Positions 43,824 through 48,696 of a stretch of DNA of 64,000 bases are shown one piece after another. The stretch covers positions 640,001-704,000 of the forward strand of contig CM000436.1 of NCBI GenBank assembly GCA_000165345.1, given 5' to 3'. Both the position numbers and the translations under genes were made by a program. The notes beneath the pieces were generated by a model. That model was not told the DNA's origin. It worked only from the letters and a program-made list of their open reading frames with translations, and made no database searches. Position 1 is the stretch's first letter, and every line of letters starts with the position of its first letter.

Positions 43824-45140
43824 CTAATCAAAATAAATAGTCTCCAGCTCACTGATTATTCCCGAAACCCTATCAAATATCAGCTTTAGCTTATTACTTT
43901 TAGTTATTTCTTCGTGAAAGATGTTTTCCCTAGCCTCAATTGGAATATCTAACTTCCCAACTTTGTTGAAAATCTCTACGCCCACATTTATACAATCTGA
44001 GATCAAATTGCCTAAAATTGTCATCTGTGATACAGAACCTTCTCTAAATGTATAGACAAGGGTCCCAAACATTAAGGAGGATCTATTTTCTCCAAACTTT
44101 CTGTATGTGTGCCTGATCTTGCACTCCGTTAAAATTTTAGAAATCAGCTCGCACGGTACTCCGAGCCTTTCGCAATCAACTGAAACAAGATGTGTATCTG
44201 TTCCATCTCCAAGTAGAGGAATTCCTGAGTCAAGCATTGTCTGCGCTAGAACAGCAGAGTTATCAAGTGCTGCTGCTACAAACTCACTAGTTCGAGAAGT
44301 TAACATTCCTTGAATTTGGACAGCAAATGACCCAATTTGATGATTATGAGGGCCTCCTTGGAGGCCTGGAAATACTGCGGAGTTAACTTTCTGAAATAAT
44401 CCAGGATTTTTGCTGTTGTTCAACATCAAGAAGCCACCTTTAGGACCACCCAAACTGCTTTGAGTGTTAGAATAAATGATGTCGCAATATCTGTATGGAT
44501 TGTTGTCCTCCCTTCCATACCTATCAAATGATATCAAAAGTGCAATTTCGCTAATATCAGCGACTAAAAAGATTTTAAATTCATTGCAAATCTCACTAAG
44601 CAGTCTGTAGTCTATGAATAATGTTAATACATCGGATGGAACAAGTAACAACTTGGGCTTTAATATCTTACATTTCTCCCTCAGGTCAACTATATCAAAC
44701 CCCCTACCTTTTTTATCCAAATTATAATATTCAACTTGGTAATAATTTTCCAATACAGTGTCAGAATCACCCCTAATCCTCAAAATTCGATCCCCCTTAT
44801 TCAGTAATCCCATACAGATGGCCAACTCAGCATGGCTTCCACTATAACACTGGATATTAAATAGCCATTCGTCATTGCTTTTTTTGTCTAATTTTAGAAA
44901 TTGTTTTAATCTACTTGCGCAGAGCGTTTCTATCTTATCAATAACGTGTGTTCCACCATAATACCTTGTTCCAGGAAAACCCTCTGAATATTTGTTTGTA
45001 AGGATACTCCCAAGGACTTTTCTCGCAGCATTAATCATAACATTTTCCTTGGGGTGTAAGTTTAAATGAGAATTCTGAAAATCTTTTTCCTTATTAATAA
45101 TATTGAATAACTCTTGATCAGATTCAATTGTTGTATTCAT
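43824..45140 (-). CDS. SHMT-family paralogue lacking the PLP-binding lysine; probable pseudoenzyme
   Basis: ATG at 45140. Retains NKYSEGFPGTRYYGG and VFPGLQGGPHNH. ASENF is degraded to PKENV; YSGSPAN becomes YSGSHAE; the GGHLTHG loop is absent; TTTTHKTLRG becomes YSNTQSSLGG, so the Schiff-base Lys is gone. Confidence 0.7.
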   Translation of the reverse strand: MNTTIESDQELFNIINKEKDFQNSHLNLHPKENVMINAARKVLGSILTNKYSEGFPGTRYYGGTHVIDKIETLCASRLKQFLKLDKKSNDEWLFNIQCYSGSHAELAICMGLLNKGDRILRIRGDSDTVLENYYQVEYYNLDKKGRGFDIVDLREKCKILKPKLLLVPSDVLTLFIDYRLLSEICNEFKIFLVADISEIALLISFDRYGREDNNPYRYCDIIYSNTQSSLGGPKGGFLMLNNSKNPGLFQKVNSAVFPGLQGGPHNHQIGSFAVQIQGMLTSRTSEFVAAALDNSAVLAQTMLDSGIPLLGDGTDTHLVSVDCERLGVPCELISKILTECKIRHTYRKFGENRSSLMFGTLVYTFREGSVSQMTILGNLISDCINVGVEIFNKVGKLDIPIEARENIFHEEITKSNKLKLIFDRVSGIISELETIYFD

Positions 45141-45398
45141 ACCTAAATGATGACGAAATTAAGTTATTAATATCAAAGATACAGTCTGTTTAGTAATTTA
45201 TTTAAGATTCTTTTTTTTTGTTACTTATTTCTAAAAAAGTGCTCGCCCCCTTTATTTGATTAAATTTTTCCCCACATGCAAGCATGTTTAACAGTGTTAG
45301 TTTCATCGTATTTACATAAATAAAATACTTATATAAATTAATTAAAATAATGAATAATGTGGATGTAAAATAGAACCTCTTATTTTTAATTAATATAA

Positions 45399-46229
45399 TT
45401 AGAAAATGATTCTAAAAATAATTACTAATATTAGAAAAGCAGTTAAATAAAGAACTATTTTAGTTATTCTTCTCCTTCGATCTCTTTCAGAAATTACATT
45501 AATCTCGTGTAGTAGGTGAAAACTGTCTGTATTAATTTCTGTTTCCTTAATTTTATCTTGAAAAGTATCAATAGTAACTTGTTCAGAGGCAATCTCATTT
45601 AATAGAATATTCTGAATACTCATTAACTCTTTCGTGGACTCCTTTAATTTAATTAACTCTGCAAAACAATGATTGGTTAATATTGGGCAATAAATGAGTA
45701 AAATAAAACCAAACCTCTTCGTATAATAATGTCACTTACCTTGGTTTTGTTCAAATAAGAGTTGTTTTTCCAATTCTTTAAAATCTGGTAAAGGCATATA
45801 TTGGGAGGTATGGACGAAAGAAGAAACAGAAGAGACAGAGGTATTTGATAATGAATTCTTTTCTAATTGGTTTCTTAAACAATTATCAACTTCATATCTT
45901 TCTAAGGAGAAAATAGTCTGAAAATGAAATAATAGATTCTCAAATAACAGTTTATAATGAGGATTTATATTGTTTTCCTTTTCCAATAACATAATACAGT
46001 ACTTAAAAAGATGTTGAGTTTCTTTAATTTTGAGATCTCTCTCAATATAACAACTTTCATTGTTTAATGAGTTAATATTTTCTCCAAAGTTTAATTCTTT
46101 CAAGTAATCTATATTTTCCTTAACCTGCTTAAAACATTTGCAAACGATTTCGTCCATTCCTTCTTTAATTAGAGTACTTTTGAAATTTTCAAAGTCACTT
46201 TTCAATGACAAGCAATTACCATAATTCAT
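45399..46229 (-). CDS. Tail-anchored Q-SNARE (syntaxin-like), 2 exons: join(46229..45740, 45658..45399)
   Basis: An 81-nt phase-1 intron (GTAAGT...TTTTGCAG) joins track ORFs 45732..46229 and 45399..45623 in frame. The product has an N-terminal helical region, a heptad SNARE-like segment with a central Gln (NILLNEIASEQVTIDTFQDKIKETEIN), a basic stretch ERDRRRRITK and a C-terminal TM helico IVLYLTAFLILVIIFRIIF. Confidence 0.5.
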
Positions 46230-46519
46230 TTCACAATTTAGATTTAGAGTAGTTCTTTTATTAATTACTTAAAGAATTTATTGCATTTTATTTCTTGTTT
46301 AATTTAATTATGAGTAATATAGCAATCTCTCCAAACATTCAAACTCTCCAATTCTGACTATCAGGTTTAAACACATACAAAATAGCCTGAAGGATTTCTA
46401 AAGTCTAAACTTGAATAACTTATCTAACTTAATCAGATTTTAACTTTTCTGACTTTTTCACTGGCTATCCATGTATTTTGTGAGGTACAGATAAATTTTG
46501 CGAGCTTAGAAAATGATGC

Positions 46520-46870: not shown

Positions 46871-47290
46871 ATGGAAACAATGCAAAATTGGGAAATTATA
46901 GACGACTACGATATTGAGAAGGAAAATGAAAAGGTTAAAAATAGTGATATCTTATCAGATTTACTAAGTGATTATGAACTTGACAACAGCTTTATGAAAA
47001 AGGATATTAATCAGCAGCTTGAGGAAATTAATATATTGATTAAAGAAGTTAATCAAGAAAAGGTAGAATTATTGAATTCATTTCCATCTTGTTCATTAGC
47101 AATTATTAAGAGCTTAACCAGAGGTGATGAAATTGATGAAGAAAATATGGAGATTGATCAGATGTCACTCTCAAGCAGCGAGATCAACTCTAGCAATGAT
47201 TCACCTTTGTTTGAAACACGAGTAAATATCGACCTGCATCAGAGTCTTACGGACTCTCCAGGAAGCATGAATATATCAGACTTTCTTTAG
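46871..47290 (+). CDS. Small acidic hypothetical protein (139 aa)
   Basis: ATG at 46871 (track start 46847 is TTG). Asp/Glu-rich; no domain recognised. Confidence 0.35.
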   Translation: METMQNWEIIDDYDIEKENEKVKNSDILSDLLSDYELDNSFMKKDINQQLEEINILIKEVNQEKVELLNSFPSCSLAIIKSLTRGDEIDEENMEIDQMSLSSSEINSSNDSPLFETRVNIDLHQSLTDSPGSMNISDFL

Positions 47291-47358
47291 CCATGAAAAA
47301 AATGTAAATATTCAAAAGAAAGAAATTAACAATTCACAAACGAGAGTAAGCAAACGCA

Positions 47359-48696
47359 CTAATACTTATCTACGATAGAAACAAATTCAAACGATGAGGC
47401 AAACTTTCGCACTGTTTGCCTGATATTCTCTATTGCTGGAGAGGCCTTAATATTAGAAACAAACTCTGCAAGAGTCTCCCCATCCTTTTGAATATCTCGA
47501 GCAGTAGTTAAAACTTCTACAATTATCCTTGAAACGAATTTGAAATCATCCAACTCCATCCCTCTGCTCGCAAGGGCTGCAGTTCCAAGTCTGACGCCAC
47601 TGCAATTCATAGTTCTCCCATCACAAGGTAAAGAACTTCTACTTGTTGAAATTTCGCATACTTCTAGTGCTTTCTCAGCCTTAGCCCCAGAAATGTTCAA
47701 TGATCTTGTATCTATTAGAATTTTGTGGGAATCAGTTCCATTTGTAAGAATCTTGATTCCAGACTCCTCGAGCAATTTGCAAAGCAATTGAGAGCTTTCT
47801 AGCACTCTACTTGCATATTTAACCCAAGAAGCAGAAACTACTTGTTTCAGTTGGAAACAAAGGGCTGCAACTTGGTTGAAATGAATACTAGACTGAATTT
47901 CTTTAGAAACTGACTCATCAATCTTAACTCTGATCTTGGACTCTACGTCCTTTCTGTAAAATATTATTGCTGACCTTGGTCCTCTTAATGTCTTGTGAGA
48001 CGTTGTTGTAATGAAATCTGCGTAGTCTTTGGGTGACGGGTACTTCCCTGCAACCACCAAACCAGAGTAGTGAGCGATATCTACCATCAGGTAGGCCTTC
48101 ACTTTGTCGCAGATATCCCTAAACCTCTTAAAGTTGATCATTCTAGGATACCCACTAGCTCCTGCTATTATCATCTTTGGTCTAAATAGTATTGCATTTT
48201 CTTCCAACTTATCGTAATCTATCACTCCTTCTAAATCAGTTACATAAGGGAGTGACTCAAAATAGTGAGATGAACAGTTAACTCTCTTCAAATTTGTATA
48301 GTGTCCGTGAGTCAGGTGGCCTCCATGTTGTAATGACAATCCCATTATTCTATCATTAGGTTTTAATACTGCATTTAATACTGCAAAATTTGCAGGAGAG
48401 CCACTATGAGGCTTTACATTAGCACCCCATACTTCAGGATCTAGTCCATATGCTTTTAAGGCTCTTTCATTTGTGAGCTCTAATAGTTCTTGTGCAGAAG
48501 TTGAGTTTAATTCCATATTTTTATCATTATTAAACATTGAGAATGTACTTGACAAGCTGTCCAAGACTCCCTTCGATACAAAGTTTTCGGATGCTATCAT
48601 TTCTAGTCCATTAATCTGTCTATCATATTCTTCATTGATTAGCTCATACATAATGGGATCCAGCTCTTTTAATGATTTTTCCTGTAAAAATACCAT
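47359..48696 (-). CDS. SHMT: Serine hydroxymethyltransferase (SHMT) with the PLP site intact but the N-terminal YSEGYPGxRYYGG loop diverged
   Basis: ATG at 48696. Motifs present: IASENF, HSGSPANFAV, HGGHLTHG, MVDIAHYSGL, TTTSHKTLRGPRSAIIFYRK, GVRLGTAALASRG. Where the KYSEGYPGKRYYGG loop should be, the sequence is DSLSSTFSMFNNDKNMELNST. Confidence 0.8.
   Translation of the reverse strand: MVFLQEKSLKELDPIMYELINEEYDRQINGLEMIASENFVSKGVLDSLSSTFSMFNNDKNMELNSTSAQELLELTNERALKAYGLDPEVWGANVKPHSGSPANFAVLNAVLKPNDRIMGLSLQHGGHLTHGHYTNLKRVNCSSHYFESLPYVTDLEGVIDYDKLEENAILFRPKMIIAGASGYPRMINFKRFRDICDKVKAYLMVDIAHYSGLVVAGKYPSPKDYADFITTTSHKTLRGPRSAIIFYRKDVESKIRVKIDESVSKEIQSSIHFNQVAALCFQLKQVVSASWVKYASRVLESSQLLCKLLEESGIKILTNGTDSHKILIDTRSLNISGAKAEKALEVCEISTSRSSLPCDGRTMNCSGVRLGTAALASRGMELDDFKFVSRIIVEVLTTARDIQKDGETLAEFVSNIKASPAIENIRQTVRKFASSFEFVSIVDKY

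Follow-up and report, generated by a model that had tools for sequence, protein, structure and literature searches.

We analyzed a 64,000-nucleotide stretch of the Cryptosporidium parvum genome (GenBank assembly GCA_000165345.1, contig CM000436.1, forward-strand positions 640,001 to 704,000; hereafter, the window) and identified two paralogs of serine hydroxymethyltransferase (SHMT), denoted here A and B, each of which appears to have preserved a different half of the ancestral active site. Both genes are intact, intronless open reading frames (ORFs) in an AT-rich window (GC content ~32%) with long intronless ORFs. They lie on the minus strand at the positions given in the initial annotation, which had put them ~2.2 kb apart; the exact gap is 2,218 bp. 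That annotation also called the two genes adjacent; they are linked, yet two conserved small genes intervene. The product of A is 100% identical to C. parvum Iowa II EAK89448.1/CPATCC_004087 (P0121), annotated as “cytosolic serine hydroxymethyl transferase,” and B corresponds to C. parvum EAK89612.1/CPATCC_004084, annotated as “mitochondrial serine hydroxymethyl transferase.” B is 98% identical to a C. tyzzeri protein (P0001), with which the exact C. parvum record clusters.

Both proteins are readily recognizable as members of the SHMT family (Pfam PF00464, cut-off 27 bits), with scores of 408.7 bits for A (profile positions 1-399 of 399) and 252.3 bits for B (positions 3-372 of 399), and their sequence matches include every solved SHMT. 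The AlphaFold2 (AF2) monomer models have a predicted local distance difference test score (pLDDT) of 88.9 and a predicted template modeling score (pTM) of 0.89 for A, and 92.8 and 0.91, respectively, for B. The best matches in the PDB are all SHMTs, with template modeling scores (TM) of 0.94 for A and 0.89-0.90 for B (0.89 for the Plasmodium vivax enzyme, PvSHMT, 4oyt). Each ORF opens at the first start codon after the upstream stop, and the alignment begins at the start of the SHMT fold; thus, comparison of the ORF starts with the fold boundary revealed no targeting presequence or N-terminal extension in A or B. Because B begins at the fold boundary and has no presequence, its “mitochondrial” label is without sequence support, and the two proteins, both lacking a presequence, would be able to share a compartment.

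SHMT, a textbook example of a symmetric enzyme, is homodimeric or homotetrameric in its canonical form and has been validated as a drug target in Plasmodium and in cancer. The canonical enzyme functions as an obligate homodimer whose two active sites lie at the subunit interface, each combining residues contributed in cis by one subunit with residues contributed in trans by the other. The cis residues are the Schiff-base lysine, the histidine that stacks on pyridoxal 5'-phosphate (PLP), the aspartate and histidine that contact the pyridine ring, the Ser-Gly-Ser phosphate loop, and the serine and arginine that bind the substrate carboxylate. The trans residues come from the YEY loop, which provides the general acid/base glutamate and two tyrosines, and from the FPxxQGGP loop. 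In PvSHMT, protomer 1 lines the pocket with loops 99-102, 181-185, and 234-237, and protomer 2 adds the “YEY” loop (51-64) and residues 272-274; the folate contacts Tyr'63, Phe'266, and Pro'267 come from the second protomer, and Arg371, His129, and Asn356 belong to the first (PMC4257618). Neutron and X-ray work on the T. thermophilus enzyme and human SHMT2 assigns Glu53* and Tyr61* to the other protomer; Glu53 has been proposed to be the universal acid/base, and its replacement with Gln nearly abolishes tetrahydrofolate (THF)-dependent catalysis (PMC11323337).

Active-site residues of A and B were mapped by alignment to E. coli GlyA. The trans set comprised nine positions (Y55, E57, Y64, Y65, F257, P258, G262, G263, and P264) and the cis set 18, including S35, S97-G98-S99, L121, G125, H126, L127, S175, D200, H203, T226, H228, K229, R235, N347, and R363. 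The losses in A and B divide along the cis/trans boundary of the inter-subunit site, beyond chance. None of the nine trans residues is present in any A ortholog, and all nine are present in every B ortholog. Against 0/9 trans residues, A keeps 17/18 in cis (Fisher p = 2e-6), N347 being the sole cis loss, whereas B combines 9/9 trans residues with 4/18 in cis (Fisher p = 1.5e-4). A self-sufficient SHMT subunit requires both sets; A lacks the trans residues and B most of the cis residues, so neither is classed as such a subunit.

The split extends to conserved alignment columns. In a panel of 217 canonical SHMTs, 105 columns reach a conservation of at least 95%; of these, 39 were lost in B only, 21 in A only, and 7 in both, with 29 kept in both (odds ratio (OR) 0.25, p = 0.006); 16 of the 21 A-only losses sit in the two trans loops. 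A second panel, drawn from 331 canonical SHMTs of eukaryotes and bacteria, comprised 87 columns with a conservation of 95% or more; here, 34 columns were lost in B only, 25 in A only, and 5 in both, and 23 were kept in both (Fisher OR 0.14, p = 1.2e-4). The columns lost in both genes cluster in the folate/pterin loop (N345, N347, G351, and P359). Thus, the complementary degeneration of the two paralogs described in the initial annotation was borne out, and more strongly than had been claimed. All the motifs quoted there were recovered by alignment and by motif position; the loss of FPxLQGGPHNH in A and those of S35, S175, H203, T226, H228, N347, and R363 in B come in addition.

In A, the cis residues S35, H126, S175, D200, H203, T226, H228, K229, and R363 are all present (Table 1). 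The Schiff-base lysine is Lys235, equivalent to E. coli K229, and the segment that carries it, TTTSHKTLRGPR, is invariant in 12 syntenic A orthologs. Pairwise identity among the A orthologs is 0.87-1.00 in the cis loops, compared with 0.73 gene-wide. The segment that replaces the YEY loop is the fastest-evolving part of A (0.50 vs 0.73 gene-wide), and the segment that replaces FPxLQGGPHNH shows a value of 0.70. The same two degenerate trans loops are the sole weak blocks of the AF2 model of A (residues 51-70, pLDDT 64 and 71; residues 261-270, pLDDT 56). All A orthologs share the changes N345S, N347S, G351C, and P359C in the folate/pterin loop; two new cysteines flank this loop. The initial annotation held that A keeps the whole PLP site, which proved too generous: Y55', G262', and G263' are gone, and N347 is replaced with serine. 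Given these changes, A alone is predicted to be inactive as a homodimer.

In B, the two trans loops are the most conserved segments (pairwise identity 0.92 and 0.95, compared with 0.67 gene-wide). The YEY loop, with the motif-level form NKYSEGFPGTRYYGG, is intact, and E53 occupies the position of the general acid/base. Of the cis residues, only S-G-S and D200 survive. The position of the Schiff-base lysine is occupied by S228, accompanied by the substitutions T226 to N, H228 to Q, and R235 to K; further losses, in E. coli numbering, include S35, S175 (to D), H203 (to E), N347, and R363 (to M). The substrate-carboxylate arginine is a methionine in most species and still an arginine in C. muris. 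Pairwise identity falls to 0.31 in the GGHLTHG region, against 0.67 gene-wide. The YSNTQSSLGGPKG segment, which stands where the lysine motif is expected, has also been conserved (0.94), suggesting that it plays a structural part in the interface.

The possibility that an unrecognized intron or a hidden exon restores the motifs missing from the ORFs, raised for B in the initial annotation, was ruled out. A tblastn search of the window with canonical SHMTs recovered exactly two loci, each as one colinear high-scoring segment pair spanning nearly the whole query, and every diagnostic motif was found exactly once across the six reading frames: GGHLTHG, TTSHK, SGSPAN, and ASEN in A only, and the YEY motif and QGGP in B only. 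Furthermore, the replaced segments are in-frame, so no intron can bring the lost motifs back.

Table 1. Features of the two SHMT paralogs and of their surroundings in the window (positions counted from the first nucleotide of the window; primed residues are those donated to the site of the partner subunit)
Feature	Position	Strand	Basis or remark
Gene A, “cis-half” SHMT paralog	47359..48696	-	ORF, 445 aa
A: IASENF; S36 (E. coli S35) binds substrate carboxylate, cis	48580..48597	-	alignment
A: degenerate YEY loop, STFSMFNNDKNMELNST where KYSEGYPGKRYYGG is expected	48499..48549	-	Y55', E57', Y64', Y65' gone
A: HSGSPAN, PLP phosphate-binding loop, cis	48388..48408	-	pairwise identity 1.00 among A orthologs
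A: LQHGGHLTHG; H127 (E. coli H126) stacks on PLP; folate contacts L122, G126, L128	48304..48333	-	
A: VDIAHYSG; D206 to PLP N1, H209 to PLP O3' (E. coli D200, H203)	48061..48084	-	
A: TTTSHKTLRGPR, residues 230-241, including T232, H234, R241	47974..48009	-	
A: codon of Schiff-base Lys235	47992..47994	-	E. coli K229
A: degenerate FPxLQGGPHNH, VSKEIQSSIHFN	47875..47910	-	F257', P258', G262', G263', P264' gone
A: altered folate/pterin loop STSRSSLPCDGRTMNCSG, residues 350-367	47596..47649	-	canonical form xxNKNxxPGDxSAxxPGG
A: GVRLGT; R369 (E. coli R363), substrate-carboxylate salt bridge	47581..47598	-	role: PMC4257618, PMC11323337
147-aa acidic protein between A and B	46847..47290	+	ORF
ORFs of 165 aa and 74 aa	45399..46229	-	match position of same-strand genes in other species
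Gene B, “trans-half” SHMT paralog	43824..45140	-	ORF, 438 aa
B: LHPKENV in place of IASENF (S35 to K)	45039..45059	-	alignment
B: TNKYSEGFPGTRYYGG, intact YEY loop; Y51, E53, Y60, Y61 donated to partner site	44952..44999	-	
B: codon of E53	44982..44984	-	general acid/base position
B: DRILRIRGDSD at the deleted GGHLTHG loop	44760..44792	-	H126, L121, G125, L127 gone
B: YSNTQSSLGGPKG in place of TTTTHKTLRGPRG (YSNTQS for TTTHK)	44436..44474	-	alignment
B: codon of S228	44457..44459	-	Schiff-base lysine position
B: VFPGLQGGPHNH, including FPGLQGGPHNH, intact	44340..44375	-	F257/P258 folate; G262, G263, P264 partner PLP phosphate; all trans
B: SLMFGT in place of G(V/I)R(L/V)GT	44061..44078	-	alignment
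HRD1/synoviolin-like RING E3 ligase	40523..42415	+	multi-pass N-terminus and C3HC4/RING-H2 motif

The cis/trans partition, the gene order, and purifying selection hold from C. muris to C. parvum, with ratios of nonsynonymous to synonymous substitution rates (dN/dS) of ~0.08-0.10. The succession of A, the small genes, B, one further gene, and the HRD1-like E3 gene is kept in C. muris, C. bovis, C. canis, and C. ubiquitum, and in C. andersoni and C. serpentis, A and B are encoded on one contig, four accession numbers apart. For C. parvum against C. ubiquitum, the Nei-Gojobori method (NG86) gave dN/dS values of 0.079 (A) and 0.097 (B), with dS of ~0.93-0.96. Decaying pseudogenes were ruled out on the basis of these low ratios and of the intact ORFs in all species. 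In C. muris, remnants of the lost halves can still be discerned, namely, NPGLQ in A and Arg363 in B, indicating that decay went on after the genus had started to diversify; such progressive decay fits a ratchet that follows an established partnership. In C. bovis, a frameshift of 1 nt within a T9 run (L002:6237, within L002:5495-6836, GCA_009768925.2) divides A into two ORFs. Removal of one T from this run yields an intact A protein, and the frameshift is probably an assembly error; the deposited annotation fuses A with the upstream gene into a 1263-aa model.

Among the matches listed for sequence searches with A and B, we found no complete third Cryptosporidium SHMT, and A is the only SHMT-fold protein of the genus with a functional-type cis site to appear there. 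C. serpentis contains an additional, non-syntenic A-like gene (P0132; L005:9842-11521 on a 17-kb contig of GCA_051169045.1) encoding 559 aa, with a ~110-aa low-complexity insertion at the site of the YEY loop, AAES in place of ASEN, and methionine (ATG) in place of the Schiff-base lysine. This protein is sister to all A orthologs in a neighbor-joining (NJ) tree. It was rejected as the A ortholog of C. serpentis, where regular copies of A (P0243) and B (P0241) are both present, and could be an extra decaying paralog or derive from a contaminant lineage.

An exhaustive profile search initiated from the B orthologs, with 150 profile matches scored via alignment-based residue calls, showed that other lysine-less proteins with all nine trans residues exist. 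One such protein (P0383) is encoded on a metagenome contig with bacterial gene content (L006; ENA ERZ26050963 contig_3, 104 kb, 36.8% GC), where two GlyA-type genes (L006:8766-11185; 8766-10010 and 10001-11185, the latter encoding P0383) overlap by 10 nt. The upstream gene has 17/17 cis residues, including N347, with NSRNEVPYNKEQDT at the YEY loop and NSIQDDT at the QGGP loop. P0383 has 9/9 trans residues, keeps NKYAEGYPFKRYYGG and IFPGLQGGP, and shows the substitutions K229 to G, H126 to F, H203 to V, and H228 to Y, with R363 gone. On the 87-column panel, no conserved column is lost in both members of this pair (0/19/36/32, p = 8.6e-6). Furthermore, the losses in the bacterial pair overlap those in A (17 shared, OR 36, p = 2.8e-8) and those in B (26 shared, OR 7.6, p = 2.4e-5). 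Because the two bacterial genes are of the bacterial GlyA type, with 32% mutual identity, this split looks like convergent evolution, unrelated to the Cryptosporidium pair. No relatives of P0383 were detected: it is a singleton in a collection of 5.8 billion proteins, and 80 GTDB loci all carry a single canonical glyA.

We consider it probable that A and B form an obligate heterodimer in which one active site is composite and the other dead. The nine trans residues are the most constrained part of B, as would be expected only if they complete a working cis site of another subunit; this constraint, together with A being the only cis-site candidate found in the searches, favors the heterodimer. 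In the proposed scenario, a duplication that predated the Cryptosporidium radiation would have been followed by the shedding of trans elements from A and of cis elements from B. An A:A dimer would bind PLP without the acid/base glutamate, both tyrosines, and the trans phosphate contacts, and the PLP site would be missing from a B:B dimer. The A:B dimer would contain one complete site, built from the cis residues of A and the trans residues of B, and one dead site, built from the cis residues of B and the trans residues of A. The pair would then have been locked in through complementary loss, in a constructive-neutral ratchet, and the heterodimer would be the likely source of 5,10-methylene-THF for DHFR-TS. 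The initial annotation asked whether the lysine-less copy is a regulatory pseudoenzyme or a heterodimer partner. Given the cis/trans split, the latter is the most likely, and B would not be merely a regulator: it is most likely a catalytic partner that provides the general acid/base glutamate, the tyrosines, and the Gly-Gly-Pro elements in trans.

Several points weigh against this interpretation. The composite site would not be fully canonical because N345, N347, G351, and P359 are changed in both proteins, and the changes in the folate loop of A may weaken or alter folate binding. The segment that replaces the YEY loop in A retains a conserved acidic residue, within N-D of FNND/YND, and this dipeptide could conceivably stand in for Glu57 within an A:A dimer. 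Physical heterodimerization, one PLP per dimer, activity, and co-expression are what we infer from the sequences. C. parvum is reported to tolerate the loss of DHFR-TS (PMC8612570), so that a strong constraint on SHMT activity is not self-evident and the physiological weight of the enzyme is uncertain. In the NJ tree, A and B form separate, well-supported clades that group together in only 20 of 200 replicates; A and B may or may not be sister paralogs, and the tree is compatible with a tandem duplication in the stem lineage as well as with an older paralogy. Finally, the bacterial gene pair is represented by one metagenomic occurrence, without detected relatives against which selection could be measured.

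Under a different explanation, A would be a self-sufficient homodimer, acting as an SHMT or another PLP enzyme with rewired loops, and B a non-catalytic pseudoenzyme with a scaffold, RNA-binding, or regulatory role. The retention in A of every cis residue except N347 and the conserved N-D dipeptide of its replacement loop are compatible with such independence, and there are SHMT-like proteins, AtSHM7 (PMC10243980) and PfSHMTm (PMC3014972) among them, that are catalytically inactive and serve other purposes. We nevertheless regard this scenario as unlikely, given that it leaves unexplained why the nine trans residues are in the most conserved segments of a protein without a PLP site of its own, why their equivalents in A are the least conserved and least ordered, and why the same split is seen in a translationally coupled bacterial pair; moreover, loss of the glutamate nearly abolishes THF-dependent catalysis in other SHMTs (PMC11323337). 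Alternatively, the A:B dimer could form with B chiefly regulating or activating, structurally or allosterically, an A that has weak activity of its own, in the manner of the trypanosomatid AdoMetDC prozyme, rather than donating catalytic residues; a regulatory ligand might then occupy the dead site. Parasites provide precedents for activation by a dead paralog (PMC3663545; the AdoMetDC prozyme cited in PMC3014972), and the conservation in B of YSNTQSSLGGPKG (0.94), S-G-S, and D200 could reflect a ligand pocket. However, the residues conserved in B are those that reach the active site of the partner in solved SHMTs, which makes direct catalysis the simpler explanation. Activation of this kind, which overlaps the composite-site heterodimer and differs from it only in emphasis, appears quite unlikely to be the principal role of B.

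The complementarity might also be coincidental if SHMT is dispensable in these parasites, with nucleotide salvage available and DHFR-TS expendable, and both genes are relics that decayed or were co-opted independently. The reported tolerance of DHFR-TS loss (PMC8612570), the changes to the folate loop in both copies, and the extra A-like copy of C. serpentis with methionine in place of the lysine would all be in line with relaxed constraint. Such an account is very unlikely, however, in the face of dN/dS of 0.08-0.10 with intact ORFs in all sampled species, a statistically significant anti-correlation of the losses, and retained halves that are invariant from C. muris to C. parvum.

Compared with canonical SHMTs, such as E. 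coli GlyA, human SHMT1/2, and Plasmodium SHMTc, A and B have the same fold (TM 0.89-0.94) and the same Pfam domain (PF00464), and together they hold all the active-site residues checked except at the Asn345/Asn347 positions. A canonical dimer, however, has two sites made from a single gene product, whereas the Cryptosporidium dimer is predicted to have one site made from two gene products. The closest mechanistic analog is eukaryotic serine palmitoyltransferase (SPT), which, like SHMT, is a fold-type I PLP enzyme; of its homologous subunits, only one carries the lysine: LCB2 has the lysine, whereas LCB1 lacks it and adds other residues. SPT is currently modeled as a single-site heterodimer, the bacterial homolog being a homodimer (PMC3794620). 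Of the features that characterize heterodimers of the LCB1/LCB2 or DHSc/DHSp type, an ancestral fold with the site at the interface, complementary losses, and joint retention under purifying selection are found in A and B, and a physical heterodimer with activity dependent on both subunits is predicted. SPT differs from the A/B pair in its family and reaction, its membrane association, and its extra small subunits. Moreover, the loss in the Cryptosporidium pair is reciprocal, in contrast to LCB1/LCB2, given that the lysine-bearing A has also lost its trans elements.

Parasite enzymes offer further parallels. In trypanosomatids, the impaired DHSc and the dead DHSp form a heteromer with a 3000-fold activation (PMC3663545), and, as we propose for A and B, in this pair and in the prozyme pairs of AdoMetDC and PRMT1, activity depends on a heteromer of an impaired and a dead paralog. 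These are not PLP enzymes, however, and the SHMT pair is predicted, by deduction from sequence only, to complete a shared site. Plasmodium, to which the initial annotation likened the pair, also has two SHMT-family genes, one lacking conserved active-site residues. PfSHMTc is a complete, active homodimer, and PfSHMTm lacks 16/21 active-site residues and has a mitochondrial presequence; the hetero-oligomer that has been speculated upon is a heterotetramer of two homodimers, for targeting (PMC3014972). The resemblance is therefore limited: the Plasmodium genes are unlinked and PfSHMTc is self-sufficient, whereas A and B are linked, neither is complete, B keeps all trans residues, and there is no N-terminal extension on either protein, and hence no presequence on B.

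Experiments with yeast Fcy1 have shown that complementary loss-of-function mutations in a duplicated homodimer can lead to functional heteromers (Despres et al., PMC10888846). The Cryptosporidium pair resembles a natural, ancient outcome of this type of constructive neutral evolution, with the difference that the laboratory system involved single mutations, whereas here dozens of positions and whole loops have changed over the age of the genus. Arabidopsis SHM7 is a catalytically inactive SHMT-like protein (PMC10243980), and its structure (7qx8) is among the structural matches of B; unlike the role proposed for B, such inactive proteins have not been reported as split-site partners. In the literature searched, we found no description of the Cryptosporidium SHMT pair or of any heteromeric SHMT. 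Mentions of “SHMT2” in Cryptosporidium proteomics papers were rejected as referring to the parasite enzyme, given that the protein in question is that of the host.

Additional degenerate SHMT paralogs were observed in other lineages. In the ciliate Paramecium primaurelia, an A-like protein (P0273, L089:8001-9425) has lost E57, Y65, F257, G262, and P264 and kept the cis residues, and in Ichthyophthirius multifiliis, a protein (P0250, L090:8001-10312) has kept all trans residues and the lysine and lost S35, S175, H203, N347, and R363. The ciliate copies may represent a further case of a split-site SHMT. A lysine-less protein from a short contig (P0318, L088:1417-2742, Logan SRR32380747) has 9/9 trans residues and B-like losses (OR 12.7 vs B). 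No tandem partner was found beside P0273, P0250, or P0318 at these loci. Another lysine-less protein (P0358, L007:10001-11305, GCA_964636845.1, 19% GC) has 6/9 trans and 2/17 cis residues. The “SHMT2-like” proteins of Papaver somniferum and P. armeniacum (P0280 and P0284) show K229 replaced with R and a deleted GGH loop, with most trans residues kept, and a protein of the yeast Babjeviella inositovora (P0312) has the substitutions H126 to Y, S35 to A, and R363 to K. Degeneration confined to the cis residues may be common among SHMT paralogs. We tentatively raise the broader idea, which we deem possible rather than probable, that split-site SHMTs are recurrent, having evolved independently in Cryptosporidium and in the bacterium represented by the metagenome contig, and possibly also in oligohymenophorean ciliates (A-like in Paramecium and B-like in Ichthyophthirius) and in the eukaryote that encodes P0318. 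Half-of-sites heteromeric SHMTs would then constitute an unrecognized class, with the Cryptosporidium dimer as the sole route to 5,10-methylene-THF in the parasite and a dead pocket that may be regulatory.

According to annotations in other species, A and B are separated by one gene on the opposite strand and one or two on the same strand, and a gene is retained at each spacer position across the genus. In C. canis and C. ubiquitum, the same-strand gene encodes a single 249-256-aa product whose C-terminal tail is hydrophobic; in the same slot, C. muris has two products (195 and 256 aa) and C. bovis one (184 aa). Neither of the spacer genes has a match in Pfam. Downstream of B, the position of the HRD1-like gene is conserved, and its orthologs match TPR_SYVN1_N and zf-RING_2.

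There is no fully effective drug against Cryptosporidium infection. If the split-site heterodimer is confirmed, the “cytosolic” and “mitochondrial” annotations of the two SHMT genes would be misleading, and drug screening with either protein expressed alone would fail. Structurally, the parasite enzyme would be set apart from that of the host by its single site, its heteromeric interface, and the changes to its folate loop, which could open a way to selective inhibition. The pair would also be a clean natural case of constructive neutral evolution, from a homomer to an obligate heteromer, with a bacterial replicate and a graded series within the genus. Furthermore, asking whether losses are sorted between cis and trans residues would provide a sequence test for hidden heteromers among pseudoenzymes whose ancestral active site lies at a subunit interface. 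Thus, the Cryptosporidium SHMT pair would be of interest for enzymology, evolutionary biochemistry, and the discovery of drugs against these parasites.

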